From Pseudovirgaria hyperparasitica (lineage: Eukaryota), in the NCBI GenBank assembly GCA_010093815.1, contig ML996572.1: a DNA stretch of 64,000 nt. One strand, 5' to 3'. Each line of letters begins with the position of its first letter. Position 1 is the first letter of the stretch. A program made the position numbers and the translations under genes. The notes beneath the pieces were generated by a model. The model did no database searches and was not told the origin of the DNA. It saw nothing but the letters and a program-made list of their open reading frames with translations. Positions 1-50,522 of this stretch are shown here, piece by piece.

Positions 1-2355
1 ATAGGTTTCGTGAACTATTATCGTAAATTCATTATAGGTTTCTTACGAATTACGGCGCCGCTTAATAAACTCATAGAGAATGGCGGTAAAATCCCCATAG
101 GTGGGCGAGCATAGTACAAAGCTAAGTCGGTCGAGATATAGTTGACGCCGGAAGCGTGAGATACGTTCCGATCGTTAAAGAATTGCTTTATAACTACGCC
201 GATTCTTAGGCATTTCGATCTCGAGAAGCATATTTAGGTCGAAACAGACGTATCTAGATTCGTAATTACTAGAATCATTAGTTAACCGCATAAAGATGCG
301 AAAGACAAGGTGCAATAGCACCCGGTCGCCTTCTTTTCCCGTAAAATGGCGGATATAGAGACGCGTTATAACACGCACGACCAGGAACTACTCGTAATTA
401 TTAAGAGTTTCAAGCAATGGCGACATTATTTAGAAGGCTCCATATATTAGATTGAATTATTATCGGATTACGTAAATCTACGTTACTTCATGTCGACTAA
501 GGTCCTTAATCGCCGACAAGTACGTTAGGCTAAGTAGATGTTAATATTTAACTTTAAAATCTTATATAAAGCTAGAAGAGAGAATAAAGTAGATCCTCTA
601 TTACGGCGTGAAGATTACGAGAAATCGTCGTAGAATGACGTAGATAGTTGGTGTAATTTAGACTATACTATACTATAGATACTAAAAGACTAGTTATCTA
701 ATAGAGTGCCGGAAGCCAGGACACTTTCGGCGACTCTCCGCGGGAATTAGAGCGGGCATTAAGTAATCTAAACTAATGTCTAAGAAATAGAGCAAATCCT
801 CGAAGACTTGATTAAATCTACCTAGAATTCTGATGTATTAGCAAAGAAAGTCATGAGTATAAAGGGAATGGCTATAGAACCGCCGTAGTTATTAAGGTGG
901 GAACGACGATCGGACGCGATCTACTTCTAAGGCCGACTCTACGTGCCGGAAGGCGGCTTACGAATCGATGTTTTAAGGGAACAGCACGATTACGCGTTAG
1001 TAGGGCACTTCGGCGTTATAAGGACGGTCGATTTAATCCGAAGGACGTACGACTAGCCGGGTCTTTATAAATATATAAAAGACTACGTAAAAACGTGTAA
1101 CGTTTACCAGCATACGAAAGTATATAGACACTTACTATATAGCGAATTAAGGCCATTACCTATGCTAAAGGAAGCATGGAAGGAATTATCGATGGATTTC
1201 ATTATAGATCTACCCCTAAGTAAGTATCTTAGGCATGTTTATAATAGTTTACTCGTAGTTTTAGATAGATTTACGAAGATATTATACTACATCCCTATAA
1301 GGAAGACGATCCAAGCACCGGATCTTATAGATATACTACTTCGTGACGTAGTTCGGCTCTACGGTGCGCCGAACGGCATAGTTTCGGACAGAGGTCCGTA
1401 GATAACGTCTAAGTTTTAGAAGGATTTCTACTATACGCTAGGAATCAAGCGGAAACTTAGCACCGCGTTCCACCCATAAATAGATAGGTAGATAGAGCGG
1501 TAGAATTAGATAGTTAAGGCGTATTTACGCGCATATTATAACTATAAGCAAGATAACTAGGTAAGGTTAGTCTGTATCGCGGAATTCGCGTATAATAATA
1601 GCCGACATGCGTCGACCTACGTAAGTCCGTTCGAAGTAAACTTCGGTCGAAACCATAAAGCGTAGTTTATGGGAACTTAGTGTAAATCAGAGTAGCCTAA
1701 CGTTAAGGCGACGGAGATTACGATAGAACTATTCCAAACGCAAAGAAGCGTTATAAAGTTATTATAAGATACTATAGATTATAGTAAATCGCACTATGAT
1801 AAGGGCAGAAAGCCTATAATCTTTAATATTAGAGATAAAGTTTTACTAAATAGTAAAAATATTCGTAGTATCAGGCCGAAGAAGAAGCTTAACTATATGA
1901 TAATAGGTCCATTTAAGGTTACTCGTGTAATTAATGACTAGGTATATGAGTTGAAACTCCCTCCCACGTTAAAGATACATAATATGTTCCATATTATGCT
2001 TCTCGAGCTATTCCATGCCTTATCGTTACCGGATCGTTCTAAATAGACGTTATATAAAGTAGTTATATAAGGAGGTGCGGATATCTACGAAGTTAAGTAG
2101 ATACTAGGCCAATAACGTGCCGAAGATGGCACGTGGCTATATAAAATTCGTTGGAAAGGGTATAATCCTAACGAAGATACTTGGGAACCCGTAATATACA
2201 TTAGCAAAGCAGCGATGTTAGCGTATAAGTAGCGATTAGCAAAGGAAGCCGCGGAATCGTAGAGAATTATACTAAAGTACGGCGATTCAACGTTTTTTAG
2301 TATAGTTCGGCGCCGAGGACGGCCGCCTAAAAGGAAGAAGATAAAAGAGACATAG
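1..2355 (+). pseudogene. pol of A1 (RT end, RNase H, integrase, chromodomain, C-terminal RRRGRPPKRKK), inactivated by RIP
   Basis: One reading frame interrupted by RIP-type stops. Chromodomain at about 2080-2200; AT-hook-like motif at 2308-2340. Confidence 0.9.
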
Positions 2356-2710
2356 ATCTTTAAAACATTCCAAGGAATTAAGAAACTTCCTTAGAAAGTT
2401 CGAACTTAGAACTTTAAAAAATTAACTAAAAAAGAGACTTAGAAAAATGATTTACTAAGAGAAATGGACATCGAAAATCGGTGCCGATCGGTATAGATCG
2501 GTATAGATTACTAAAGAGATTAAAGAAGTTATTATCAAAGAAAGATGAAATTAAGGAAGCTGAAAGAAAATACGAAGATCTATATAGATCTATATAAACT
2601 CGCACTAATCTATCTAGAAGAAGCAAGATCGCTTTAAAATTAAAACTGAAAAAACCAAAACGCTAGATAAAAGAGACATATTAGTACTAATTGGTGTAGA
2701 TCCAAACCGA

Positions 2711-3605
2711 TTAAGTCGGAGTAGGAGTAGAAGTACTAATTACCGCGATAGTTACATCTAATTCCTTCCGCTGGTTCTTATTTAGTATAGTGTAGAGCTT
2801 TATGATATAAGTCTCTAGCCTTTCGTTCCGACGCTATAAATTCTATATAGCGCGCCTTATAGCTATGAACTCCTCTATAGAAACCTACGGAGCGGCGGAA
2901 CCCGGGACGGAGAGGGACAGACCGGCACGGGCACGCTAAGAATTATATAAATCAGCGAAAAGATTCAACGATCGGTATAGAACCACATACCGTTGGTATA
3001 GAAACTTCTAGATTAGAGCCATCTTCCCTAAATTTACGGCTCTTTAGCACGCGCGAGGAAGGAACCTTAGCCTTTTTACTAGAACCTTTTCTAGGAATTT
3101 TAATATCGCCGGTATATAGAAAGAAGTCCGAAGTAGTAGAGATTTTAGCACTATTATAGAGATTAATACATATTAGTAAGAATCTATAACAATTTAAGAA
3201 AAACGATATTACCTAGTAATCGCGGTAATAATAGCTATAGTAGATTCTAATAAACCCTTACGGATCTTATTAGAATCGTACTCCTAGGCGTAACCCTTAC
3301 CTTAGGTATATAGCTCGTAGAAAGCCTTCTCTAAGGCGTTACGATCGGTAGTACCACGCTCCTTATTAGTAGGGGTTACTAGAGGCCTAGTAGTAATCTA
3401 TACCGATATAAGTAAATCTACGTAAAGTTCTTCGAACTTACTTAAATACCTATAAGTAATGACGCTTCTTAGTTATATAAGTGCCGTATATTATAGATTT
3501 AGTACCGCCGTAAGTAATGTATGACGGAAAGCGACAACCATAATAATATATAGCTAGATTATTAGAGCCCGGCCTAGGTCGGGGTAGATTAATAGCTTTC
3601 GACAT
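2711..3605 (-). pseudogene. Spliced antisense accessory gene of element A1 (Cys6 zinc-cluster-like motif, basic region, coiled coil); start may lie further upstream
   Basis: Minus-strand introns at 3449-3398, 3212-3151 (GTAATA..ACTAAT..TAG) and 2990-2936 (GTATGT..GCTGAT..TAG). Splicing gives one frame whose only stops are RIP-type TAG/TAA. Motif Y-G-T-Y-x6-Y-L-* reads C-x2-C-x6-C-L-Q after de-RIP (inferred). Confidence 0.7.
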
Positions 3606-4176
3606 ATCGGTAATATATGCGAGATAGGGATTATTTAAAGGCGCCTATTTCCGCGCCGATTACTTTAGAGCGTCAAGATTTCGGGAAACTATATTATGAT
3701 TATTATTGATTTATGCGGATTATTGCGAATTATGTTATTACTAGCTAAGGACGGCATGAAAATTAGTAAATTGCGTAAATCGCACTAAATAGTAGTAAAT
3801 CTATATAAATCTATGTCTATAAGGATCGGGTGATATACCTAATGATCTAAAAAACTCTATAAAGAGTTGAGAAGTTTTTTAAAGAAAGGAATATTTCTAA
3901 GAAAAGATTTTGATATAGGTAGCACCTAGGCTTACCTAATCACATCACGTGATACGCTAGGCCTAATTAGGTAATCTTACCTATGTAAGAAGTTAAGATA
4001 GATAAAATCTAGTTTATTAGGAAAACGCTTGTATAAATCTTAGATCGGTGAATATCGGTAAGTATCTAAGACGAAGCGTAGAGAACGACTAAGGTCTTAC
4101 GAGACTTAGGATAGGGATATAGGGATAGGTAACGATCTAGGTCGCTAAGGGTAGCTTCCTAGAGGGAAGGGATAAT

Positions 4177-4404
4177 TATTAGGACTTAGCCTTAGGTAGG
4201 ACTCGATCTATATATACCTTAGCTAATAGGGTTAGGAGGTGACGTGAAGGGCGGTAAATAGTTACGTGCTAGATAGATCGGCGTCCCTTTATATATATAC
4301 TCTCGGATTCCTACCGAAAGGGTTCGGTAGTAATTCGTTCTATGATAGAATATACCCCATTGTTCCATCTAGCTATACTACTATCCAATAATCCTATTCT
4401 TACA
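4177..4404 (+). repeat. 3' LTR of A1 (228 bp)
   Basis: Follows the PPT, starts TATTAGG (RIP of TGT..), ends CTTACA, has a TATA box at about 4289-4299, and matches 19443-19670 at the same length. Confidence 0.92.
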
Positions 4405-4433
4405 AATATACCCTATTATTCTATCTAACTATA
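4405..4433 (+). repeat. Internal fragment of the 5' LTR of A2, stranded between the A1 and B insertions
   Basis: AATATACCCTATTATTCTATCTAACTATA matches the family A LTR (4349-4377). The LTR sequence resumes at 12480-12511. Confidence 0.85.
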
Positions 4434-4671
4434 TGTAAAGAGTGAAGACGTAGGATAGTAGTCTAACAGTTTATAGAGAGACATAGGAATGTATTTATAG
4501 GGTAGTCTCACTCTTATACGAGGTTGATTCCTAACGAGTAGGAGTCGGTTTATACGGTCTACTTATATAGTGACCTCGCTTAACTTAGCTAACTCGACCT
4601 AGCTCTGGCCACTACGTGGCTGCATGGATTAGAATAGTCCATATAGGTCCGTTATGGTTCCCGTCCTAATA
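4434..4671 (-). repeat. 3' LTR of element B
   Basis: Direct repeat of 12242-12479, adjacent to the minus-strand PPT AAAAAGAAGAAGGA. Confidence 0.93.
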
Positions 4672-5150
4672 ATATCCTTCTTCTTTTTATGCTTCGCCCT
4701 AAAGTACTTAAGTATATATAATCCTAAGTCTCTATAATCCATCGTGTATCTATATATCCGTGACTAAGTTTCTATGACGTCATAACCATCCTTAATATAG
4801 GTAAACTCGAGATTCTAGTTCACTTTTACTAGTTTATGTACGCGCTTATCCCTTACTTTGTGGCTACTACCTAGGACACGTGATTACCACTCTGGTCGAG
4901 CATATATTTAGCTTCGCTCGCCTTTGATTTTATTCTCTAGTATATCCACCTCGCTCTCAAGGTAAGTCGTTAATTCATATACTATCTTCCCTAGTTCAGG
5001 TTTAGAAGGGTCTATTATGGTCCATTCTTATTAGAACCGGTCCTATATGACCCATTCGCGTTATTACGGTCACTGATTTAGCTTTATTAATTACCGTTAA
5101 GGGTGGACGAATATTCCTTCCTTAGATCTTTAGCTAACATGTATATATAG

Positions 5151-6466
5151 ATGTCTAATACTAGTCCTATCTCTAAGCCTACCTCCTCCTCTCGTAAGAC
5201 TCGCTCTAAAGGCATCGCCTCCTCCCCGGCCACGCCGGCTAAGAAGTCTACCCATCGCGGTAGTATAAAGGCGCGCTCCAAGTCGGAGAAGAGAGTAGCT
5301 AGGGCTGCTACTACTACTTCTACCTCTACCACTAATGTAGCCACTAGTCGCTCTAATCCAGGTGATCCTAGTACTGAATTTATGGATAAAGCGGTCGTAA
5401 GTTCTCCCCTCGCTCTAACGCGTACGCCGCCTACTCTACCTCCTCTAGAGGATGAAGAAGATCTCGTTATAGATAATGATCGCGAGCCCTCGCGCTCACC
5501 CACGCCGCCGCCTCGCCGCTCTTTCTTCCGGTCTAACATAGACCGATTTAGTCGCTCTAGGTCCTTTTAGAACCTTAACATCCGCTCTAAACCCCAGCCT
5601 ACTAATAATAAGGCCTAGGTCGCTGAGGATACTAAACGTGGTCGCGGTTTACGCTATAGGAAAACGGCGAACTACGGTTTAATATACTATAAGTGTATTA
5701 AGGGCCATGCGGCCGGCTCTAAATATCTCTTTCGCTCTAACTCTAGCATTAGCTACTGCTCTACTAACCGCGACGGGCCTATACGCCCTATCTTTACTCT
5801 GCCTACCCGCTGCCGCCGCTATGCCGTAACTAGTAAGACTTGTCTATAGGTAAGTATAATAGGCTATCTTGGTCTAGTGTAATCTAAAGTTATCCGCGCT
5901 GATACATTCTTAGGTTCCTATGCGTATATAAGATATATATAATGACCTTCGCGTCCGCGAGACCCTCGGGGGTCCTTATAGCTATCTACCTACTATATAG
6001 AGGGAGTTTAGGGAGCGCTATAAGCTCTTTCTAGAGGTTATTAAAGTATAAGTTGCGAACACGTTAATTATTTTTAATACCTATTAATATTTCTAGCCGC
6101 CGCGAGATCCCTAGCGCCTAGGCTACCCATTCTAGGGAGTCTATTCTAGCCATAGAGGCCGTAGAGAGGATTCGCTCTATCCCCCCCTATCCGTCTCGCG
6201 CTACTAACGGATCTCGTAAGAGGTCTACTATTTCTCCCTCTAAGTCGCCTCGTAAGAGGGTATATATTCCCTTCTAGATTATTCTAGATCGTATTAGCTA
6301 ACTTTAGACCCAGTCGCTGCGCTCCGGTGCTTAAGGCTCTTCCCTCTAGGCTCTAACGGATCGAGTTATTACTCTAGAGGCTAAGGTCGTCGTCCTCCGC
6401 CGCTATATCGTGCGGTTAAAGAGAACTATACTAGAGGTTAGAACGGATGATGAGATGGAGGAGTAG
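5151..6466 (+). pseudogene. Spliced antisense accessory gene of element B (S/T/K/R-rich N-terminus, Cys6 zinc-cluster-like motif, NLS-like RKRS..SPRKR, C-terminal coiled coil)
   Basis: 5'-UTR intron 4962-5150 (GTAAGT..GCTAAC..TAG) ends directly before the ATG. Coding introns at 5850-5913 (GTAAGT..GCTGAT..TAG), 6048-6096 (donor RIP-mutated to ATAAGT) and 6260-6307/6313 (GTATAT..GCTAAC). The spliced frame is continuous except for RIP-type stops and contains YYKC..C..CRRYAVTSKTCL*|VP. Confidence 0.8.
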
Positions 6467-6960
6467 CTCTATGGTTCTGGCTCTATGGGTTTGGCTCTGT
6501 ATATTAGCTCTATGTATTCTAGATCTACTATAGGTGGTGCGCGCCGACTCTATTTACCTGGCTTTTATCCGTTTTAGTCCTTTTTAGACCGTTTAGATAC
6601 CCGTCGGCCAGTTCCTAGTAATTTAATTCTTAACTTAACGATATTATATGTGCGCTCGCTTAGCTTATAACTATCGGTTTCTACATTCTAATTTTCCTTG
6701 AGTTACCTAAGTGTGGGCACCGCATATTAATTGGTTTATCTCTATGAATTCTATTAGAGCACCCGAACTAGTAGCCTAGTAGTTATTAGTTCGGGTACTC
6801 TAACCTTTTGTATTTCGTGTTAAGAGTTTAATTCTATGGTGGGGTACCTTTTTAGGTTCTTGGTCCTATATTTTTCTCGTGTGCAATAGTCCATGTTGGT
6901 CCATTCTAGACTCTTCTATGTTGTTCTATTATGGTGTATCGCGTCGCGTTCCTGAAATGG

Positions 6961-9900
6961 TTATTTACGCTTTCTTCGCGTCTGGTAACCGTGCGACGCT
7001 TGAATTATAGGGCTGCCATATAGAGTTTTCCTAGTGCGCGTCTAGATTTCCTAGTTTGGCACTTCGTTCTCTACGGTATCCTTCTTCTTTTTACAACGAC
7101 CGCGACGTCGCTATACTTACATTAATAATACGCTATTCTATACCTTTTGCTTATACGCAGCCATTACCGAACTTAAGATATATACTACTGGTTCCTAGGT
7201 GTCCTCGTCCTCGGTGTAGTCCTTCTAACGGATTCTGTATTTCTAAATACCGTCTTCATCGATTCTATGTTCGATAATATGGTCCACTTCGAACACGTCT
7301 AGTCTATCTTAGGGTATAATAGAGTATAACTACACGTTCGTGCGGCTATACACGTTAGGTCGAAATCTTTCGAGTAGTAAGACGTGGAACACGTTATGGA
7401 TTCTTATATCGCTTCCTAAGTCGAGCTCGTAGGCTCTTATACCGATATAACGTTTGATTCGGAAGGGACCAGCCATTTTATAATCGAGCTTCTTATTTAC
7501 TCGCGACGTTCGTATATTACGGACGTTAAGAAGGACCTCGTCGCCCTCCTCGTACGTCTAATCCTTAGCTAACCTATTATAGTACTTCGTATACGAGTCG
7601 TTTACTTATTAGATTATAGCGCGATAGTTACGTGCGGTTTCGAAGATTTTAATCGCTAATTCCTAAGCGTGGACGTTCACGTCTATTATTCGATTAAATT
7701 AGACCGTCTAAGGCTTAAAACCTATCCTTGGACTGCGTTCGAGGTTCGCCTAGAAAGGTATAATACCTATCGTGCTATAACGACTATTATTATATACGAA
7801 CTCTACTATACTTAGTAGAGAGGCCTAGTCGTCCTACTCGAAATTATAGAATACGCGTAGGTAGGCCTCGAGCGTCTAGTTCTATCGCTCTATCTAGCCA
7901 TCCGTCTAAGGATAAAATACTATAAACATGTTTCTATTCATGCTTACCATTTCGTAGAATAACGTCTAGAATTTAGACGTGAAGGTACTTCCTCGGTCCA
8001 TAACGATCCTTTTTAGTATACTATGGACCTTAATAATCTCGTTCTAGAACACCTGCGCTAGTTCTTTAGATGTAATCGTCTTCTACACCGGGATGTACCT
8101 AGACATCTTTATAAGTCTATCCACGATAACAAGAATAGAATTATAACTCATCCTAAGCATCTCGCTTAGAGATAAGTTAACTATAAAGTCTATAGTAACG
8201 TCTTCCTACATAAAGAGGGGGACTAAAAGAGGCTATAAATTTCTATATGGCTTATGCCTAGGGGCCTTCGTTCTTTAATAAATCGGATAAGTAGCTATCT
8301 ATTCTTCGACGTACTTAGGTATATCTTCCTAAAAATAGTACTAATGAATTAAGCTTAGGGTACGTATATACCTAAAGTATCCTACTAGGTTAGCGTTATA
8401 GTATTGGCTAACTACATTAAATCGCGCGTTACCCGTCGGCATATAGCACTTTCTATTATAGTAAAGTAAGCCGTCCACGAAGGTCTACTTATAGTCTACT
8501 TTAGTCTATAATAACCTATCTTACTATATTTTATATAACTTTAAAACTATCGGGTCTATCTTCTATAGATCCACGATTAACTAGGCGAGGTTAATTAGAT
8601 ATTCACGCCGGGTATTGTCGCCCTTCCTAACAGCGCCAATAAACGGCCTACTAGGGACTTCGGTACCGCGTCTTTGGTCACCGGCTTCGGTCTTAGAGAT
8701 TTAATCACCGGTATCGACGTTAGTATCTCGCTAATCGCCTAATAACTTAAAATCCAACCTCGTCCTTAAGAGTTAGGCCTATAGCTACTCTAGGACCCTA
8801 TAGCTACTATGATCCTAGGCGCCTTCTTCATAGTTAGGTCTTCTTAATATCCTATTAGCTAGGTTTATACTTCTAGGTCGATGGTAGATTATAAAGTGAA
8901 AGTTCGTAAGCTACTTAGCCTATCGAACCTATCGACGGTTTAAAACCGTCGTGCTTATAAACCCCTTTAAGTTATAGTAATTAGTTAGTAACTCGACGTT
9001 ATGTATAGCACCTTTAAGATAATATCGCCACTATTTAAACGACTCTACTATTACTAGTAGCTCTTGGTCATGGATAGTGTATCTAGTCTTAACATCGACT
9101 ATTTTACGCGAGAAGAACGTAACTAGATGCCATTAGACCTTTTTAGACTTAGTTGGTCTAGGCTAGGAGAGAATGCCTAAGATTATAAATCCTAACGCGT
9201 CGGTTTCGACGCGGATAGGTTTGGTCGGGTCGAAGTACACTAGTAATAGAGCAGTTATAAATGCCTCTTTAATTTTCTCGAAGGAGGCCCTTTCGCCTTC
9301 CGATAATTCTATAGGCTACGATTTAATATTACGCTGTTTCTATCTACCGCGGACCGTAATAGACGAATCTATGGTAGTAGTGCGCGTGTTAAGCGGTGCT
9401 ACTAGCCGGGAGAAGTACTTAACGAATTTTCGGTAGTAATTGGCGAATCTAATGAAGACACGTATATCTCGAACCGATTTTAGTTTAGGCTAGTCCACGA
9501 TAGTAGCGACCCTGTCCCTTTCTATGGTTACACCTTAATTAGTAATAACGAAGCTAAGGAAGTTAACGTGGTCCTAGTGGAACTTATATTTAGATAGCTT
9601 AATATATAGCTTATGTTTTTCTAGCCTATCTAGGACTACGCGTACGTGCTAGATATATTCTTCTTCGTTATCCGAGAAGATAAGGATATTATTAAGGTAT
9701 ACGATGCACGTCGTGTTAAGTAGGCCTACTAGCGCGTTATTAATGTACGCTTAGAAGGTCCCTAGCACGTTAGTTAGTCTAAAAGGGACCACTATGTACT
9801 TAAAGTGTCTATAACGGGTCCTGAACGCCGTTTTCCACTTATCGCCCTTCTTAATACGTAGGCGGTGGTAGGCGTCGCGTAGATCGAGCTTGGTAAAGAT

Positions 9901-12182
9901 CTTCATGCGCCCTAGTCTATTAATAGACTCGGAGATAAGAGGTAGTGGGTAACGATTCTTTCGTATGATATTATTTAGGCTACGGTAGTCGATACATAGA
10001 CGGAGACTCCCATCCTTCTTCTTTATAAAGAGGATTAGGGCTCCGGCTAGGGATATACTAGGCCTAATCTATTCTCGCGTAAGGTTCTTTTCGATATATT
10101 CTCGGAGGACCTATAGCTTAGGTTCTAATAGAGGGTAGATGGGTCCGTGTAGAGGTTATTAACCGTCCTCGAGGTCAATAGTAAGATTAGTAGGTTGGTA
10201 TTAAGGTAATTCGGACGAGTCAATCGCTAACGCGACATATTAGTACATTTTATACTAATATGGTAGGTTTTCGTCTACTCTAATACTAAGCTCTCTATTT
10301 TAAGTGAGTGAGAGGACGTAGATAGTAGAGATTGCCTTTTCGTAGTCCTTCTAGAATTATTCGTCGTCGACTAGCTATACTAGGTTCCATTATAGTAGGT
10401 ACATGCGCCAGCTAGCTGTTTTCTAGATAAAGTCTAGTTTCGGGTTATGTTTTTCGAGCCACGGCATACTAAGAATCATATCGAAGGGGCTATCTACCAC
10501 GATAAAGGTTAAGTAGCAGGGTTTCCACTTCCCCCCGCTGTCCTAGATACTATATTTAATAGTATAGGTACCCTACGATTTAATGGGACTATCGATACCA
10601 TGGAAGGTAGCATCTATTAGTACTTGAATATCGACGTTAAGTTCTCGTGCTCGTTAAGTCGATATAACGTTAGTGGCTAAACCGCTATCAAGTATTATAG
10701 TCCAATGTTATCCACGGGGGACCTCGATGGGCCTAGCCTATAGTTCGATATACTAGTTAGCTGGTTATCCCTCTATTTTAGTTACGCCTATGAGTCGCGA
10801 GGGTTTCTTGTAGGCAGTTAGTTTTTTATATTATATACCGGGTAGTTAGGCGCGATGTGTCCTAGCTGCTAGCACTTATAGTATGTAACTAACTTAGTAT
10901 CTATATTAGTATTCGGTGGTTTCCTAGAGCGGTACTCGGGTACTATATGGCCTATCCTACCATAAGTATAGTAGGTGACTTTAGGTCGTTTATACGAGTC
11001 GTTTCTCGCGTCTCGATATATCGACTAGTAGAAAGATCCGCGGTACGGGTCTCGTCTTCTCGAGTTCGTAGAGTAGTAGCACCCACGAGGTGTTCCGCGC
11101 GATCTATTACTAAACCGGTTCTCTTTAGACGATTTCGCATTAGGTTAGATTAATAGGGATAGTCGTGCGCCTATACGACGTTAGTTATTCATTATGCGCC
11201 AATGTCGTTCTACGAGATTCGCGAGTGCCTAAAGGTTGGTAGGGATAGACGTTATAAGGTCGATACGTTCCTTTATACTTAGGTTAAGGGACCTTTTAAA
11301 GTCGTCGCATTATCGAACCATGCGATCTTCCTCGGCTTCTCTCTAGAGAGGTCGGAGGTATTTAAGGAGTTATAACGGGGATTATCTTTCTCGCTATTAA
11401 GTCTTAAAGATATAGCTCTAAGCCCATTCGCGTCGCTCGGCTCTGTCGCCAAAGCATTAAAGGAGGAATTCGGTGAACGTATCCTAGTTATACGCATCCT
11501 TAGGGTGTTCGATTCGATATACCATCTAACGTTTAGATAGCGTTAGGTCTAGGTAGTTCTATGCGAACCTAATCTTATTACTATCGTTCGTGAATAGGTG
11601 GAAGAATCGGCTATACTAGTAAGCCTATTCGTGAAAGCTCCTCCTGGTTTTACCGTCGAAGTAAGGTGGTTTCTTAGGCCGAGGCAACTAGAATAGTAAT
11701 GGACTTGGTTAGACTGTTTCGGCTTAAGTTAGTCTATATTAGTATAGGTTAGTTACTACTAGCACTAAAGCGCGTAGTGCGGCTTCGAGTCTAGCGGTTC
11801 GTCCTCGCGCTTTATCGAGTTCGCGAAGTTACTATTTAAGCTACGCCTAACGCTACCTTTCCGTGTATAGCCTAGTATACACGTTATCGTGAGGCGTGGT
11901 TAACGTTAGTCGGTTCTAACGAATTAGTTTATCAACGTTAATAGGGTCTGGTCTTATAGTAAGGATAGGTCTAGTATAGTGTGAACTGGACCGCGATGGA
12001 GTATAATAGACTCCTTCCTTATTATCTAGGTAGTCTTCCACGGTTACACGGAATACCGTACTAGTTATTAGTGCGATAGCTTATAGGGTATACTCATCGG
12101 TGGAGGTGGTCGTAGAGAGACTATTCTCCTCATTTAGGTTTAGGGAGAGTCTCTCGTAGGAGGTCGTGCCACGGGTATTATG
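6961..12182 (-). pseudogene. gag-pol of element B, inactivated by RIP (ends approximate)
   Basis: Gag zinc knuckle (Y)YKC*QLGHIAPN(Y) at about 10843-10885, slippery AAAAAAC then TAA at about 10818-10827, protease LDSG at about 10681-10692, [15 protein letters not shown] at about 9982-10020 and CIVYLNNILIFS at about 9673-9708, integrase F(Y)P*TDG*IER at about 7885-7917, chromodomain YRIR*KDYTEDEDT*EP at about 7188-7240. Confidence 0.92.
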
Positions 12183-12241
12183 GCGTATAGTAGGAGCTAT
12201 CTCTATAAGCTACCGTCGTGCTATATAGAGAGGAATTAAAA

Positions 12242-12479
12242 TATAAAGAGTAAAGACGTAGGATAGTAGTCTAATAGTTCATAGAGAGACATAGGAATAT
12301 ATTTATAGGGTAGTCTTACTCTCATACGAGGTTAATTCCTAACGAGTAGGAGTTAGTTTATACGGTCCACTTATATAGTGACCTCGCTTAACTTAGCTAA
12401 CTCGACCTAGCTCTAGCCACTACATGGCTGCATGGATTAGAATAGTCCATATAGGTCCGTTATAGTTCCCGTCCTAACA
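12242..12479 (-). repeat. 5' LTR of element B
   Basis: Direct repeat of 4434-4671; ends CCTAACA on the plus strand and is followed by TSD CTATA. Confidence 0.93.
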
Positions 12480-15400
12480 CTATACTACTATCTAATAACC
12501 CTATTCTTATATTTAAATTACTCCCTATATAGTACTATAGTTAAGATAGTCTAACTAGAACCGAGAAGGTTAACACGATCTACTATAGGGATAAGTAATA
12601 CTATATTAAATAATAGAGATTCTCTATAATTAGTATTAATCCTAGCTATTTCTAACTAAGAAGTAGAAATATTAGACTAAATTACGGAGCTTTTAGATAA
12701 AGAAATAGTAGATACGCTAAGTAACTTCTAATAATATAAAGCCGGATAATAAGTCGTAGCGGAGCCACGTAAGGTATTATAATAAACTATTACTAAACTT
12801 TAGGAATACGTCGCGAATTAGACTTAAGAGATTTAAACTCTTAAAGAATAGATAGAACGCGCGAAACTCCTTATAAAGAGACGAGAACTTAAGGAGTCTC
12901 TTAAAGAACTACGCCGAACGATAGTAGGTAGACGACTTCCTATACTAATTTAGGCGGAATTAGTTTACCTACCATTAGAGTTATAATAATCTACCGTATA
13001 CCCGGCCGCTTCGTTACCGATTTACTCTACTCCTTCCCTAGATATACTAAAATCTAAAGATCTAACTATATTTATAGAGAAGAACTAAAAGGAGTAGAAA
13101 GACTAGAAGAGAGACTACAAAAAGTACTTCCTTAATAACCCTCTACTCTTTTCTACTAAAGTATAACATATTTCGTTCGGAGAACGATACCTAGACTTAT
13201 AATCCCGCGATTAATAGAATAGATAGAAGGAAGTATAGCTACTATCTACGATAACCTAGGAATATTTAGCTATATTTATACTAAATACTCTCGGAACGGA
13301 TAGAGAACGTAAAAGAAAGGCACTATCTAAGTTAAGAAGTGTAGTATAACGACTGAACTAGATATCTACTTAACTACTATAATACCTCTAAGACCTATAG
13401 AATAATATCCCTATACTATAGGAAAATATTTATATATTCTAGTTTCGCGAAGTACTACTTCCGTTAATCCGCGAAAGACTAGAAATAGTATTATTAAGTT
13501 TTAACTATCTATATAAATTAGAGGAGAAAGCTAATAAATACTACTATATTCTTAAGAAACGCGGCTCTCTAGGTAAAACTAACGAACCCTATATAGATTA
13601 GAAACGAGGTCGATTAAATACGTTCGATTAAGAGTAACCTTACTATAATTAGCGCTAGAAGAGCGTAAATCGGGGTAGAAACGCGTTAAGAGAATACTAA
13701 AATAATTAAGGCGGTACTTCTTAATATAGAAAAGGATAAGGTATAGACTTAAATATAACGCCTATTATAAAATAGTAGGATTATAGTATACTTCGTTACT
13801 ATAAGTATAGAGAAATAGAATATATTTCGCCTAACTATAAGAATCTAAAAAAAGAATAGGCTAGTATATAAGATCTAACCGCATTCTTAGCTAAATTATA
13901 TATACTTAGGAGAAGCTATAGCGCCTTCCGGCGAGTAAAGATCTAATATTACTAAAAGTATCGTTATCTATAGTAAATAGTAATAAAACTATATAGGCCC
14001 TCGTAGATACTAGTATAGAAGATAACTATATTTTATCGATTCTTATAAAGGAGTATAGATTATCATATAATCTTAGTAAAGTTAGCTAAACTATTATAGT
14101 TAATAGATATAAAGTTAGAACTTTAGATAAAGCTATAATAAATTATAAAGTTCATAACTTAAAGATAATAAAATAGTAGATATCTAATAAATTTATCGTA
14201 GCTAATATTAGCTAATAGAATATAATTCTAGGGATGCCTTAGCTTAGACGCCTAAACCCTATCCTTGATTTTTAGAAGGAGATATTAACGTTCCGATAAT
14301 ACTATAGTAAATTATACTAGTAAATTATAACTATTAGTAAGGAGGCATAGAACCTCGCTATACGGACCTAATTATTACTAATCTATCTTATATCCTTATT
14401 AATTATTAATAAAGATAAGGATAATAGTAATAATTAGGGCGAAGACACGCTATCTAACGTATATTCGTAGTATGCGGATATATTTTTAGTAGGAGATATA
14501 TTACTTCTCCCTAATCACGGGCTATATAAGCTAAAGATTAAGCTCGAAGAGGGAGTGGACGTCCCTTATAGCCTACTTTACCTACTTTTAAGACTAGAAC
14601 TTAAAGTTCTTTATAAATATATTAAAGAATACCTTAGAAGAGGCTAGATACGTTATAGTACGTTATTAGCTAGTATATCTATTCTCTTCGTAAAGAAGAA
14701 AGACGGAAGTTTATATCTATATATCGACTATTAGGTACTAAATATAGTAACTAAGAAGAATCGTTATCTATTACCGCTAGTTAGTAAATCTTTAGACTAA
14801 TTAATAAAGGTAAAGTACTTTATAAAGCTAGATTTATAAGATATATATTACTAGCTTTAAATTTATCGTGGAGATAAGTGGAAAACCGCATTTCGGACTA
14901 GATATAGTTATTTTAAGTATACTATTATGCTATTTAGGCTAATAAATACGCTAGGAGCGTTTTAAGGATATATTAATACTATACTTATAGAATTACTTAA
15001 CGTGATTTACGTAGTTTATCTCGATAATATACTAATTTACTCCGATAGTATATAGGATTATAAAGAACACGTGAAATTAGTACTAAATCGTCTAAGGTAG
15101 TATAAACTCTACGTAAAATTATCTAAATATAAGTTTTACTAATAAGAAGTTAGGTTTCTCGGCTTTATTATAATATATAGCGGCCTAAAAATAGAGCTAG
15201 AGCGTGTAAAGACTATTATAGAATAGCTAGAACCTACTACTATACGTTAAATTAGAATATTTATAGGTTTCGTGAACTATTATTATAAATTTATTATAGG
15301 CTTCTTATAAATTATAGCGCCGCTTAATAAACTTATAGAGAATAGTAGTAAAATCTCTATAGGTAGGCGAGTATAGTATAAAGCTAAGTTAGTTAAGATA

Positions 15401-17977
15401 TAGTTAACGCTAGAAGCGCGAGATACGTTCCGATTATTAAAGAATTACTTTATAACTACGCTAATTCTTAGGTATTTTAATTCTAAGAAGTATATTCGGG
15501 TCGAAACTAACGCGTTAGAATTTATAATTACTAGAATTATTAGTTAACTATATAAAGATACGAAAGATAAGGTATAATAGTACCCGGTTACTTTCTTTTT
15601 CTATAAAATAGTAGATATAGAGACGTATTATAATACGTATAACTAGAAACTACTTATAATTATTAAGAGTTTTAAGTAATAGCGATATTATTTAGAAGGC
15701 TCTATATATTAGATTAAATTATTATCGGATTATATAAATCTATATTACTTTATATCGACTAAGGTCCTTAATTACTAATAAGTATGTTAGGCTAAGTAGA
15801 TATTAATATTTAACTTTAAAATCTTATATAAAGCTAGAAGAGAGAATAAAGCTAATCCTCTATCGTAGCGTAAAGATTATAAGAAATCGTTATAGAATAA
15901 CGTAGATAGTTAGTATAAGTTAGACTATACTATACTTTAGATACTATAAGACTAGTTATCTAATAGAATACTAGAAGCTAGGATACTTTTAGCGATTCTC
16001 CGCGGGAATTAGAGCGGGTATTAAGTAATCTAAATAAACGTCTAAGAAACTAAGAAAACCCTTAAAGACTTAATTAAATCTATCTAGAAGTCTAATATAT
16101 TAGGAAAGAAAGTTATAAGTATAAAAGGAAGTACTATAGATCTACTATAGTTATTAAGGTAGGAATAATAATTAGACGCGATCTACTTCTAAGGCTAACT
16201 CTATATACTAGAAGGCGGCTTATAAATTAATATTTTAAGGGAATAGTATAATTACGCGTTAGTAGGGTACTTTAGTATTATAAGGATGGTTAATTTAATC
16301 TAAAGGACGTATAACTAGCCGGGTCTTTATAAATATATAAAAGACTATATAAATACGTATAATATTTACTAGTATATAAAAGTATATAGATACTTACTAT
16401 ATAGTAAATTAAGGCTATTATCTATACTAAAGGAGGTATAGAAGGAATTATCGATGGATTTTATTATAGATCTACCCCTAAGTAAGTATTCTAGGTATAT
16501 TTATAATAGTTTACTCGTAGTTCTAGATAGATTTATAAAGATACTATACTATATCCCTATAAGAAAGATAATCTAAGTACTAGATCTTATAGATATACTA
16601 CTCTATAATATAGTCTAGCTCTATAGTATACTAAATAGTATAGTTTTAGATAGAGGTCCGTAGATAATATCTAAATTTTAGAAGGATTTCTACTATATAC
16701 TAGGAATTAAGCGGAAACTTAGTACTACGTTCCATCTATAAATAGATAGATAGATAGATAGAGTAGTAGAATTAGATAGTTAAGGCGTATTTACGTGTAT
16801 ATTATAACTATAAGTAGAATAACTAGATAAGGTTAGTCTATATCGCGGAATTCGTATATAATAATAGCCGATATATATTAATCTACGTAAGTCCGTTTAA
16901 AGTAAACTTTAGTTAGAACTATAATATATAGTTCTTAGAGACTTAGTTTAAAGTAGAATAACCTAATATTAAAGTAATAGAAATTACTATAGAACTATTC
17001 TAAACGTAAAGAAGTATTATAAAGTTACTATAAGATACTATAGATTATAGTAAATTATACTATGATAAGGGTAGAAAACCTATAATCTTTAATATTAGGG
17101 ATAAAGTTTTACTAAATAGTAAGAATATTTATAGTATTAGGCTAAAGAAGAAGCTTAACTATATAATAATAGGTCTATATAAGATTACTCGTGTAATTAA
17201 TAACTAGGTATATAAGTTATAACTCCCTCCTATATTAAAGATATATAATATATTCTATATTACGCTTCTTAAGCTATTTTATACCTTATTATTACTAGAT
17301 TATTCTAAATAGATACTATATAAAGTAGTTACGTAAGAAGGTATAGATATCTATAAAGTTAAGTAGATACTTAGCTAGTAACGCGCCGAAGATAGTATAT
17401 AGCTATATAAGATTTATTAGAAAGGATATAATTCTAATAAAGATACTTAGGAACCTATAATAAATATTAGTAAAGTAGTAATATTAGTATATAAGTAGTA
17501 ATTAGTAAAGGAAGCCGTAGAATTATAGAGAATTATACTAAAGTACGGTAATTTAACGTTTTTTAGTATAGTTTAGCGCTAAGGACGGCCGCCTAAAAGG
17601 AAGAAGGTAAAAGAGATATAGATCTTTAAAATATTCTAAGGAATTAAGGAACTTCCTTAGAAAGTTTAAACTTAGAACTTTAAAGAATTTAACTAAAAAG
17701 GAGACTTAGAAAAATAATTTACTAAGAGAAATGGATATCGAAAATCGGTGCCGATCGGTATAGATTAGTATAGATTACTAAAGAGATTAAAGAAGTTATT
17801 ATTAAAGAAAGATAAAATTAAGAAAGCTAAACGAAAATATAAAGATCTATATAGATCTATATAAACTTATACTAATCTATCTAGAAGAAGTAAGATCGCT
17901 TTAAAATTAAAACTAAAAAACTAAAAACACTAGATAAAAGAGATATATTAGTACTAATTAGTATAGATCTAAACTAA

Positions 17978-18871
17978 TTAAGTTAGAGTAGAAGTAGAAG
18001 TACTAATTACTATAATAGTTATATCTAATTCCTTTCGCTAGTTCTTATTTAGTATAGTATAGAGCTTTATAATATAAGTCTCTAGCCTTTCATTCTAATA
18101 CTATAAATTCTATATAGCGCGCCTTATAGCTATAAACTCCTCTATAGAAATCTATAGAGTAGTAGGACCTAGAATAGAGAGGGACGGACCGGCGCGGGTA
18201 CGCTAAGAATTATATAAATTAGCGAAAAGATTTAATAATCGGTATAGAACTATATACCTTTAGTATAGAAACTTCTAGATTAGAGCTATCTTCCCTAAAT
18301 TTATAGCTCTTTAGTATATATAAGAAAGGAACCTTAGCCTTTTTACTAGAACCTTTTCTAGAAATTTTAATATTACTAGTATATAGAAAGAAGTCCGAAG
18401 TAGTAGAGATTTTAGTACTATTATAGAGATTAATATATATTAGTAAGAATCTATAATAATTTAAGAAAATAATATTATCTAGTAATCGCGGTAATAATAG
18501 CTATAGTAGATTCTAATAAATCCTTACGGATCTTATTAGAATTATACTCCTAGGCGTAACTCTTATCTTAGATATATAGCTTATAGAAAGCCTTCTCTAA
18601 GGCGTTATAATTAATAGTACTATACTTCTTATTAGTAGAGGTTACTAGAGGCCTAGTAGTAATCTATACTAATATAAGTAAATCTATGTAAAGTTCTTTA
18701 AACTTACTTAAATATCTATAAGTAATAACGCTTCTTAGTTATATAAGTACTATATATTATAGATTTAGTACTACCGTAAGTAATATATAATAGAAAGTAA
18801 TAACTATAATAATATATAGCTAGATTATTAGAGCCTAGCCTAGGTTAGGGTAGATTAATAGCTTTTAATAT
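17978..18871 (-). pseudogene. Second, more degraded copy of the family A antisense accessory gene
   Basis: Colinear with 2711-3605 at an offset of about 15266. Confidence 0.65.
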
Positions 18872-19442
18872 ATTAGTAACGTATATAAGATAGGAATTAT
18901 TTAAAGACGTCTATTTCCGCGCTAATTACTTTAGAGTATTAAGATTTTAGAAAACTATATTATAATTATTACTAATTTATATAGATTATTATAAATTATA
19001 CTATTACTAGCTAAGGATAGTATAAAAATTAGTAAATTATATAAATTATACTAAATTATAGTAAATCTATATAAATCTATATCTATAAGAATTAGGTAAT
19101 ATATCTAATAATCTAAAAAACTCTATAAAGAGTTAAGAAGTTTTTTAAAGAAAGGAATATTTCTAAGAAAAGATTTTAATATAGGTAGTACCCGGGCTTA
19201 TCTAATTATATTACGTAATACGCTAGGTCTAATTAGGTAATCTTACCTATATAAGAAGTTAGAATAGATAAAATCTAGTTTATTAGAAAAACGCTTATAT
19301 AAATCTTAGATTAGTAAATATTAGTAAGTATCTAAGACGAAGCGTAGAGAATAACTAAGGTCTTACGAGACTTAGAATAGAGATATAGAGATAGATAATA
19401 ATCTAGGTCGCTAAGAGTAGCTTCCTAGAGGGAAGGGATAAT

Positions 19443-19670
19443 TATTAGAACTTAGTCTTAGATAGAACCTAATCTATATATACCTTAGCTAATAGGGTTA
19501 GGAGGTAACGTAAAGGGCGGTAAATAGTTACGTACTAGATAGATCGGCGTCCCTTTATATATATACTCTTAGATTTCTACCTAAAGGGTTTAGTAGTAAT
19601 TCGTTCTATAATAGAATATACTCTATTATTCTATCTAACTATACTACTATCTAATAACTCTATTCTTATA
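19443..19670 (+). repeat. 3' LTR of A2 (228 bp)
   Basis: Follows PPT AGAGGGAAGGGA; matches 4177-4404. Confidence 0.92.
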
Positions 19671-48710: not shown

Positions 48711-49019
48711 GATAAGTATAGAAAGAGTGTAATAAGCAAGAGAATAAGTGAGCAGTCTTGGGAGCTGGAAGCGACAGGCGCGCGTTAGTTGATACATTCA
48801 CGCCCGACCGGTGAAGGATGGTCGTCCGCTTATGCTTTGCCAAGCCAATGGACACGCCGGTTTTAGCGGCCACGGGAGCGGGGTGAGGGGTGCTAGATCA
48901 GGAGCGCATTATTAGTGGGGCGCGGGGTAGGTAGGTAGATAGGTGGGCAGTGTGAGACCTTTTTTTTTTTTTGCTTTATTGGCTAATCTCGATCATTGTG
49001 CTGTTTTTCCCTGGTAATT

Positions 49020-50522
49020 ATGATAGATGACGCACGAAGGGTATACGCATCGGCAGCGAATCAGGGCGGCCATGTGCCAAAAGCCATCGCACCGTTTGCC
49101 TTGCGGGCAGTACGCACTGCCACGGCCGAAGACACGATCTGGTCCGAGGTGAGCGAGCAAGCATTCCGCCGGCTTCTGGTCGAGTTGGAGGAGCGCACTA
49201 ATGCGGTTCCTATCGATGTCGTGACTGCAGACGTCCAGCCTGATGGTCGCGCTGACGGGGATCCTGCATGCCTGCCGTTGAGCGTCGAGAAGCAGGTCGC
49301 AGATGACTTTGCGTACCTTGCTGCCGTTACTGAGGGGGCGCAAAGTGTGGCTGCTGTGTGTGTGGAGCAGCATATCTGTCATTCGACGACAACGACGACG
49401 ACGACGACGACGACAAGGCTGGTCCTACGCATTGCTGGCATGGATGTAGTCGTCGAGAACGTCAGGGCGATGCTAAAGGATGTGTGCATCATACTAGAGG
49501 GCGTAGCGGCGTGCCGCCTGGATGTGAACCATGAAGGCCGCAATGAGATATTCGCGGTCGTCGTCCGCCAACACCGCCAGAAGCTCTTGGGCCGGATGCG
49601 ATCGAGGAAGTGGGTGAAGCCGAAGTACCTGAGCAAGCAGCACAAGAAGCCGCTTTGGAAGGACTTTGACAACGTCATCCACCGTGCGCCACACGTCTAT
49701 CCGAAGAAACGCGATTGTAGGACTCGAGATCTCGTGATCCAGAGTTTGACAGCGATGCAGGCGAGGTATACACGCTACGAGGACGTAAACGACGACGATG
49801 GCAGTGCCAACCTGCTGCATCTCCAGGATCTCGTCAAAGCGACTTATGACTTCTGTAAGCTCCCCGAGATTGCAGCGTTTGCCGCACACTTTGAAGATAT
49901 ATCGTCGCCGACGCCACAGGTCGGAGCAGTCATCAAAACACTCCGTCAGCTCGAGAAGATAGGCGCGTACTGGAGAATCAGCATGGACCTCGCATCAGCG
50001 GCGGGGCAATACTCGCAGTCATTCCAAAGCATACACTTGGCGTACGTGACGCCGTATGCTGAAGTCCCGACAGACATTGCATACGAAAGCTGGGCAAAGA
50101 CGATGCACGTACATGCTGAGGTCCAGCTGCTAGTTGAATACGCGATGCGGAAACAAGGCGAACACCATCATGATGACAAGAACAAGTTGGTAATCATCTG
50201 GCCACGCACGATCGGCACGAGCAAGTACCTCTGCTATCTCTGCTATCTCTTCCTGACCGAGCATGGCGGGTTCGGGACTGCGCTGAGTTCTCACGGAAGA
50301 CTGTTCGATCAGTGGACCGTGCCTGATCTGAGTGAGTTCGACGCGCAAACACAAGGCATATTCGCCAACGTGCTTGAGAGGGTGTATCGGCGTGTGGAAT
50401 GGCAGCTAGGGTCGACGAGAGAACCGGTGCGCTGGCGCTCAGAGCCAATGACGAGTCGACAAAGCTTGATCATGCATGTGGGAGGGAGGGCCATTCCAGT
50501 TGACCCGCCTTTAGTTACATAG
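49020..50522 (+). CDS. OTT_1508-like nucleic acid/nucleotide deaminase
   Basis: Zinc deaminase motifs HVHAEVQL and IGTSKYLCYLC, followed by SHGRLFDQW.VPD; N-terminal LPLSVEKQVADDFAYLAA..VAAVCVE block. Intronless ORF; first ATG at 49020. Confidence 0.85.
   Translation: MIDDARRVYASAANQGGHVPKAIAPFALRAVRTATAEDTIWSEVSEQAFRRLLVELEERTNAVPIDVVTADVQPDGRADGDPACLPLSVEKQVADDFAYLAAVTEGAQSVAAVCVEQHICHSTTTTTTTTTTRLVLRIAGMDVVVENVRAMLKDVCIILEGVAACRLDVNHEGRNEIFAVVVRQHRQKLLGRMRSRKWVKPKYLSKQHKKPLWKDFDNVIHRAPHVYPKKRDCRTRDLVIQSLTAMQARYTRYEDVNDDDGSANLLHLQDLVKATYDFCKLPEIAAFAAHFEDISSPTPQVGAVIKTLRQLEKIGAYWRISMDLASAAGQYSQSFQSIHLAYVTPYAEVPTDIAYESWAKTMHVHAEVQLLVEYAMRKQGEHHHDDKNKLVIIWPRTIGTSKYLCYLCYLFLTEHGGFGTALSSHGRLFDQWTVPDLSEFDAQTQGIFANVLERVYRRVEWQLGSTREPVRWRSEPMTSRQSLIMHVGGRAIPVDPPLVT

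Follow-up and report, generated by a model that had tools for sequence, protein, structure and literature searches.

The 64,000-nucleotide stretch of Pseudovirgaria hyperparasitica DNA analyzed here (contig ML996572.1 of assembly GCA_010093815.1; hereafter the window) contains, at 5151-6466 on the plus strand, an intron-bearing gene lying antisense within a long terminal repeat (LTR) retrotransposon, element B. This gene is very probably the dead copy, mutated by repeat-induced point mutation (RIP), of an accessory gene belonging to a Ty3/Gypsy chromovirus family. A preliminary description of the same DNA, made from the letters alone, had proposed a complete spliced antisense gene here, with an atypical zinc cluster and a coiled coil. 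The exon-intron structure stands; the window copy is a RIP-killed, inactive pseudogene with eight internal RIP-type stop codons, so 'complete' applies to the structure of the gene only.

Element B spans 4434-12479 (8046 bp), reads on the minus strand, and interrupts the first copy of another repeat, element A, whose second, uninterrupted copy shows the empty target site. The first 21 kb of the window are AT-rich (GC 0.24-0.47), and the remainder has a GC content of about 0.50. Self-comparison revealed a direct repeat of 249 nt (4433-4681 against 12241-12489, 92.8% identical), within which LTRs of 238 bp with TG..CA ends were refined by eye; together with the flanking target-site duplication (TSD), they give element B the paired ends of a Ty3/Gypsy element. 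When all six frames between the LTRs were searched against Pfam, families appeared in only one, on the minus strand, with matches to RVT_1 (1.1e-22), RT_RNaseH_2 (7e-19), RT_RNaseH (1.4e-17), and SH3_Tf2-1 (1.3e-14), all above their cut-offs. A Chromo match (E 0.0026, 18.1 bits) fell under its 25.1 cut-off; the pol domains follow the chromovirus order, and the closest pol relatives carry PF00385. Since the pol domains occupy a single minus-strand frame, element B is a minus-strand Ty3/Gypsy chromovirus, now RIP-degraded. Its pol has 3419 relatives at E<=1e-10, with about 40% identity after RIP, and resembles Dothideomycete entries, the named relatives including Parastagonospora and Elsinoe. 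Pol ends at about 7050-7140, from where about 2.4 kb extend to the 3' LTR, and the gene occupies this space on the strand opposite pol, the placement of an antisense additional open reading frame (ORF). Its claimed location, antisense inside element B, is therefore borne out by the minus-strand pol and the LTRs on both sides.

The intron coordinates put forward in the preliminary description proved right when checked directly, with sizes typical of fungi (189, 64, 49, and 48 nt), and so did the three clear branch points (GCTAAC, GCTGAT, and GCTAAC) and the degraded state of the fourth intron. Removal of the introns joins four coding exons in one frame of 1155 nt, from the ATG at 5151 to the TAG at 6466, as had been claimed. 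The internal stops are all TAG or TAA, and the intact ORF spans only the first 139 codons, which is indeed all that the ORF track displayed. A basic patch resembling a nuclear localization signal (NLS) and a coiled coil, both predicted earlier, were located at the end of exon 3, which closes with RKRSTISPSKSPRKR, and in exon 4, which contains LTDRVITLEAKVVVLRR; hydrophobic residues of the exon 4 segment are spaced 4-3-4-3 on direct reading, and two intact relatives described below (L001 and L002) have similar parts. Two other ways of splicing the region were rejected. Removing an intron-like stretch at 5397-5551 shifts the reading into a stop-filled frame, and taking 5903-6259 as one frame without coding intron 2 brings in three stops, is less protein-like, and misfits the relatives. 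Opposite exon 1, a 150-aa ORF runs on the minus strand at 5087-5539; it has no family match and reads like a shadow frame of the GC-richer exon 1.

The model could in principle be a chance frame in a non-coding post-pol spacer, its introns picked to fit. The choice of intron ends was free, one donor is not GT, an ORF also runs on the opposite strand, and intron-like patterns occur about once per 3 kb in RIP-rich DNA: the pattern GTAAGT...CTRAY...YAG was found 13 times on the two strands of the 21-kb AT-rich block, 3 of the 13 inside 4962-5913. The stop density of the model, however, is below that of the element's own pol frame (8/384 codons, or 2.1%, against 54/1001, or 5.4%), and the two other frames over the same exons hold 46, 7, 9, and 8 stops in exons 1 to 4, compared with 8 in the model frames. 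Intact relatives modeled independently have the same exon number and phases, the junction of cysteines and splice donor is unique in the window, and the similarity to L002 is colinear (both described below). A chance frame was already disfavored on these grounds, and we regard it as extremely unlikely.

The mutations carry the mark of RIP. In the gene region the TpA/ApT index is 1.87 and the (CpA+TpG)/(ApC+GpT) index 0.38; the corresponding values for the window's GC-rich part are 0.74 and 1.21. At 80% likeness, two DNA sequencing runs of one sample placed 7069 and 2712 contig pieces on 4682-7400, covering 30 of 30 bins, although contigs cannot give the copy number of family B itself. Differences between copies are nearly all transitions (141 of the 149 listed places in run X1). 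Judged by contig coverage of this one sample, the post-pol region is present in most copies of the family, and because coverage is full, the region belongs to the high-copy, RIP-mutated family as such and is not an isolated insertion. The cysteine codon at 5811-5813 reads TAC in most other family copies (G to A at 5812), from which it follows that RIP converts these cysteine codons to tyrosine. Two other runs, X3 and X4, bear the same species label as X1 and contain next to no family-B words, whereas X1 and X2 gave thousands of pieces; the family may be strain-specific, or X3 and X4 may be runs of another kind.

Intact relatives came from metagenomes, where a pol profile fetched 78 loci, designated here by L numbers. 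A quick tree of the reverse transcriptase (RT)-RNase H region (75 rows) groups the window with L001, L002, and L003 (SH-like approximate likelihood ratio test support 96), on a window branch that is long and of deviant composition; the highest RT-RNase H identity of the window is 54%, to L001. Both L001 and L002, the nearest to the window in pol among the loci fetched, carry an intact antisense gene directly downstream of pol, in the same place and orientation as the window gene. An exhaustive search for spliced ORFs returned a four-exon antisense ORF of 287 aa as the top model of L002 and a four-exon ORF of 267 aa as the second-best model of L001, whose top model, of 283 aa, reads through the first donor. 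The same search yielded 79 and 71 aa on the sense strands, at most 83 aa in reversed sequences, and at most 215 and 188 aa in 100 shuffles. The window gene and those of L001 and L002 agree in their intron phases (0, 2, 0). Upstream of the ATG, both relatives have a stretch resembling an intron of the 5' untranslated region (UTR) and within 130-200 nt in length (GTGAGT...CTAAY...YAG; 196 nt in L001 and 134 nt in L002), so the claimed architecture of three coding introns plus a 5'-UTR intron recurs in both; no comparable intron-like stretch was found upstream of the ATG of L017, another locus with an antisense gene.

The proteins of L001 and L002 share a build consisting of a six-cysteine module, a basic patch, a C-terminal coiled-coil-like segment, and an acidic end. 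Comparison by eye also picks out short correspondences along the window gene: FRSN..C with FRSN..C of L002, RI*DIYNDL in exon 2 with IPQDVLDAF of L001, VIK|VRREIPS across the intron 2 junction with CIQ|KNIVRIPES of L001, SRATNGSRKR in exon 3 with SRATSGKKRR of L001, SPRKR| at the exon 3 end with SPAKR| of L002, and KVVVLRRYI with KIELLRRQV of L001. We aligned the last 234 residues of the window protein semi-globally to the relatives, using 1000 shuffles and reversed controls. The scores were z 4.9 for L002 (reached by 0 of 1000 shuffles) and z 3.1 for L001 (6 of 1000), with reversed controls at -1.0 and -1.3.

The cysteine module stands at the end of exon 1. Its codons confirm the spacing given in the preliminary description: four of the six positions are cysteine codons (5694, 5757, 5811, and 5841), and tyrosine codons at 5685 (TAC) and 5820 (TAT) fill the other two. 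Both tyrosines had been read as former cysteines, and the relatives have cysteine at both positions. The window's YYKC corresponds by eye to CVKC in L001 and CQRC in L002; its CRRY matches, by motif, CESC, CGRC, CDRC, and CALC of four relatives, CESC being that of L001. A tool alignment places cysteines of L002, L017, and L052 at window tyrosine 5820, and aligns L001 there by its first CVKC instead. In L001, L002, L017, and L052 the module ends in C-x2-C-x5-7-C, and a 5' splice site comes two codons later, as is also the case at 5811-5855 in the window. With tyrosine allowed for cysteine, this juxtaposition occurs once in the six frames of the 64-kb window (5811-5849). Searched with GTRRGY as the donor in six frames of the fetched loci, it occurs 5 times in 634,294 nt against about 0.3 expected, and 4 of the 5 are antisense to pol. 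Exon number, intron phases, cysteine positions, and this splice site are thus common to the dead copy and its intact relatives, which shows that the gene is real and that its introns have been maintained across retrotransposition.

The product resembles the Gal4-type Zn2Cys6 proteins (PF00172) in having six cysteines in two C-x2-C-x6-C-like triads, a coiled coil downstream, and a fungal host. It differs in its loops, with lengths of 14-20 and 17-32 residues across the window, L001, and L002 where PF00172 has 6 and 5-12, and in its coiled coil, which lies about 120 residues downstream of the cluster and not adjacent to it. Of the long-looped zinc cluster proposed earlier, the six-position module stands, and the relatives are alike in it; the window does not have the Zn2Cys6 spacing C-x2-C-x6-C-x5-12-C-x2-C-x6-8-C, two of its six positions now being tyrosine, and it matches no Pfam family. 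No family reached E<=10 with the window pieces (exon 3 being scanned one base out of phase), PF00172 included, or with exon 1 of L001, L002, L017, or L052. Structure prediction of an L002-type exon 1 with AlphaFold gave an unusable model (predicted local distance difference test, pLDDT, 39.9), and a homodimer prediction for window 6350-6463 scored 0.21, below the mark.

Searches with the gene itself returned little. Neither window exon 1 nor the L001 ORF recovered a named protein; the L001 ORF found only one near-identical protein, and a metagenome scan with exon 1 found no relative. The stop-free 76-aa cysteine piece scored at best 0.76 in the Atlas, which is not meaningful, and a profile of the type represented by L016, L070, L075, L022, L025, and L029 missed the window gene, its best match (E 3.5) lying elsewhere.

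Several observations weigh against our interpretation. A word-based protein search with exon 1 scored 0 of 654 candidates, and an exhaustive phmmer search of 1.84 billion representatives with the same exon gave one match, a six-fold repeat protein over a low-complexity stretch. Pairwise BLASTP of the window exons against the L001 ORF reached E 0.61 at best, with nothing for exon 2; tblastx of 4682-7170 against the 78 loci found nothing at E<=0.01; semi-global alignment of the window with L017, L052, and L016 showed no similarity; and the proteins of L001 and L002 are themselves not significantly alike (z 1.4). How noisy these alignment scores are can be seen from one reversed control, at z 2.4. 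The donor of coding intron 2 reads ATAAGT and not GT; as position 6048 is preceded by T, a TpG-to-TpA RIP change of an original GTAAGT is possible. For L001 the second-best model was chosen because it uses the conserved donor. L006, in a neighboring pol clade that also holds the carrier L017, lacks an antisense six-cysteine gene. None of the sequencing runs listed with the stretch is an RNA run. Given such fast protein evolution and weak similarity, the case rests mainly on position, structure, and motifs.

The same motifs extend the gene beyond the closest relatives. An antisense six-cysteine pattern lies within 3 kb at 12 of 45 loci, these 45 of the 78 being the ones with the pol C-terminus present and at least 1 kb downstream. 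At L016, L028, L070, and L075 the spacing is the canonical C-x2-C-x6-C-x11-C-x2-C-x6-C, with an intron before the cluster; at L052 it is C-x2-C-x7-C-x11-C-x2-C-x6-C, and the Zn2Cys6 spacing searched for in the window is found in L052 and in the L016/L070 type. The L052 protein (480 aa) has a long low-complexity N-terminus, the cluster, several basic patches, a coiled coil, and finally an acidic end, and its gene has the intron at the same site. Against PF00172, the proteins of L016, L025, and L075 score 15-16.3 bits, which is sub-threshold (cut-off 21). For the L016 type, AlphaFold modeled residues 1-40 at pLDDT 72-80, and all 24 Foldseek hits of this model are Zn2Cys6 domains, several with a root-mean-square deviation of 1.8-2.8 over 34-40 residues and all at E >0.1. 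In the Atlas, the L016 protein adjoins unnamed eukaryotic clusters, in which Basidiomycota are the commonest taxon.

Two side observations concern other fetched loci. At L050 and L051, the triads CERCADFGILC and CAPCTKAKAAC are split by an apparent intron (by eye), a third intron position relative to the cluster. At L005, a protein fragment at 6461-7056 on the minus strand lies downstream of the element, probably in flanking DNA; it may be closer to a piggyBac-type transposase than to an antisense cluster gene.

Taken across these loci, we tentatively suggest, at somewhat short of even confidence, that an antisense gene with introns, evolving fast and encoding a Zn2Cys6-derived cluster plus coiled coil, is carried by fungal chromoviruses of several lineages, whose hosts are ascomycete-like and basidiomycete-like. 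Such a gene would be a retrotransposon-owned Gal4-type transcription factor, expressed from the 3' LTR side and controlling element or host genes in the manner of HBZ (discussed below), and the long-looped form in the window would be one derived branch. The distribution also bears on the idea of a passenger, a host cysteine-cluster transcription-factor gene captured in reverse by an ancestor of the family and not serving the element. Zn2Cys6-type factors are abundant fungal genes, and the presence of introns points to genomic DNA, not mRNA, as the source; both suit such a capture. So do the patchiness of the gene in the pol clade, where it is missing from L006 and would not fit into the unit lengths of L004 and L008, and protein evolution so fast that L001 and L002 are no longer significantly alike. 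A useless passenger should decay, however, and the spliced ORFs of L001, L002, and L052 are intact and far longer than controls; the region runs throughout a high-copy family, and several separate pol lineages have antisense six-cysteine genes in this position. We therefore consider a passenger unlikely.

If the gene belongs to the element, as we favor, its pre-RIP product would have been a protein of about 384 residues. It would have begun with a basic, low-complexity region, followed by the six-cysteine module, which probably bound zinc, by an NLS-like basic patch, and by a coiled coil of heptad repeats near the C-terminus, ahead of an acidic end. The promoter presumably lay within the 3' LTR or beside it. 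Splicing cannot remove the introns from the element's genomic RNA, to which they run antisense, and this is why they survive retrotransposition. We infer that the product may have bound zinc, dimerized, and entered the nucleus, where it would most likely have bound nucleic acid as a dimer and regulated the transcription or retrotransposition of the element itself. Alternatively, the antisense transcript itself might matter, as a partner for double-stranded RNA or small RNAs or through transcriptional interference with the sense RNA, the reading frame being secondary. Botrytis LTR retrotransposons yield sense and antisense small RNAs, according to the available part of one report (10.1101/2021.04.13.439636), and protein conservation between lineages is very low; a role in RNA alone, however, needs no intact multi-exon frames, conserved intron phases, or cysteines, and we hold it to be very unlikely.

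Antisense genes at this position have precedents. In fungi, the Botrytis element Boty reportedly carries the antisense gene brtn between pol and the 3' LTR, an account said to be that of Zhao et al. 2011, Virology 417:248. Excerpts of later papers describe brtn as an antisense gene of Boty-like Ty3/Gypsy elements in Botrytis cinerea and Sclerotinia (PMC7264820, PMC8365987, PMC4227169, PMC5987419). Compared by description only, and as far as these excerpts go, brtn is like the window gene in being an extra gene of a fungal Ty3/Gypsy element, between pol and the 3' LTR and on the opposite strand. The window host differs from the hosts of Boty, being another RIP-active fungus with a pol resembling Dothideomycete entries. 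In plants, the elements Grande, RIRE2, and Retand (the last with a TRP28 domain) are described in the accessible portions of two papers as having antisense ORFs between pol and the 3' LTR (PMC7264820, PMC11963269); for the Retand ORF, one of these portions proposes a DNA-binding, regulatory role with reference to the antisense genes of human T-cell leukemia virus (HTLV) (PMC11963269). On those descriptions, the plant ORFs share with the window gene their place, orientation, predicted DNA-binding products, and a long post-pol region, and they differ in host kingdom, in their non-chromovirus Tat/Retand lineage, and in protein domain. The word 'intron' is absent from the main text of PMC7264820 and PMC11963269.

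A parallel in possible working, though not in membership, is HBZ, with which the window gene shares antisense orientation, predicted splicing, and a basic region plus coiled coil. HBZ of HTLV-1 is a spliced antisense gene expressed from the 3' LTR side, encoding a basic nuclear protein that dimerizes by a leucine zipper and regulates transcription of the element. It differs from the window gene in being a basic leucine zipper protein of a vertebrate retrovirus, with no cysteine cluster and no sequence relation. An antisense accessory gene at the post-pol position is, then, of a known kind, represented by brtn and the plant antisense ORFs. The protein content (cysteine cluster plus coiled coil) and the conservation of a multi-intron structure seem to be new: no zinc-cluster antisense gene of fungal Gypsy elements was found in the literature searched, which did not cover the original description of brtn.

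The features of element B and its antisense gene are collected in Table 1.

Table 1. Coordinates of element B and of the antisense gene in the window.
Feature	Position	Strand	Remarks
TSD CTATA, left copy	4429..4433		Read from sequence; right copy 12480-12484
3' LTR (in the element's orientation)	4434..4671	-	TG...CA, the CA now RIP-changed to TA
Putative polypurine tract adjoining the 3' LTR	4672..4690	-	Reverse complement purine-rich, AAAAAGAAGAAGGA
Putative promoter and untranslated first exon (antisense gene)	4672..4961	+	Between LTR and donor of the 5'-UTR intron; no long upstream ORF
5'-UTR intron	4962..5150	+	189 nt, GTAAGT...GCTAAC...TAG; ends directly before the ATG
Coding exon 1	5151..5849	+	233 codons; Ser/Thr/Pro/Arg-rich N-terminus, then cysteine module; stops 5568, 5616, 5847
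Six-position cysteine module	5685..5843	+	C-x2-C-x20-C-x17-C-x2-C-x6-C
Coding intron 1	5850..5913	+	64 nt, phase 0, GTAAGT...GCTGAT...TAG; starts two codons past the last Cys
Coding exon 2	5914..6047	+	Stops 5929, 5998
Coding intron 2	6048..6096	+	49 nt, phase 2; donor ATAAGT; no clear branch site left
Coding exon 3	6097..6259	+	Stop 6119; ends in basic patch SRKRSTISPSKSPRKR (6212-6259)
Coding intron 3	6260..6307	+	48 nt, phase 0, GTATAT...GCTAAC...TAG; alternative CAG acceptor 6313
Coding exon 4	6308..6466	+	Stops 6332, 6347; heptad repeat 6353-6439; acidic end DDEMEE; terminal TAG 6464-6466
Convergent space, antisense-gene stop to pol end	6467..7140
Degraded gag-pol	7141..12241	-	Reverse transcriptase, RNase H, integrase SH3, chromodomain; Pfam
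5' LTR of element B	12242..12479	-

Elsewhere in the window, element A is present twice (1-4402 and 15263-19668, 85% identical), its second copy having a GC content of just 26% and a (CpA+TpG)/(ApC+GpT) index of 0.03. A stretch of 272 nt at 14870-15141 matches, in inverted orientation and at 65% identity, the reverse-transcriptase region of element B (9575-9846), which suggests a further degraded Gypsy fragment within 12518-15262. In the GC-rich gene block, an ORF at 48996-50522 on the plus strand has an OTT_1508-like deaminase domain (2.7e-17), and neighboring ORFs have zuotin-like, PB1, importin, protein kinase, and TPP-enzyme domains.

The copy in the window is inactive, and no effect on its host is expected. 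For the elements themselves, LTR retrotransposons with accessory genes on the opposite strand have been described from plants and, in one case, from fungi; the family described here suggests what such a gene may encode, namely a dimeric DNA binder of zinc-cluster-like type, for which the element's own LTR is a candidate target. Routine annotation overlooks antisense genes of this sort, since repeats are masked out and the products have no family match, and many more may lie hidden in fungal genomes.

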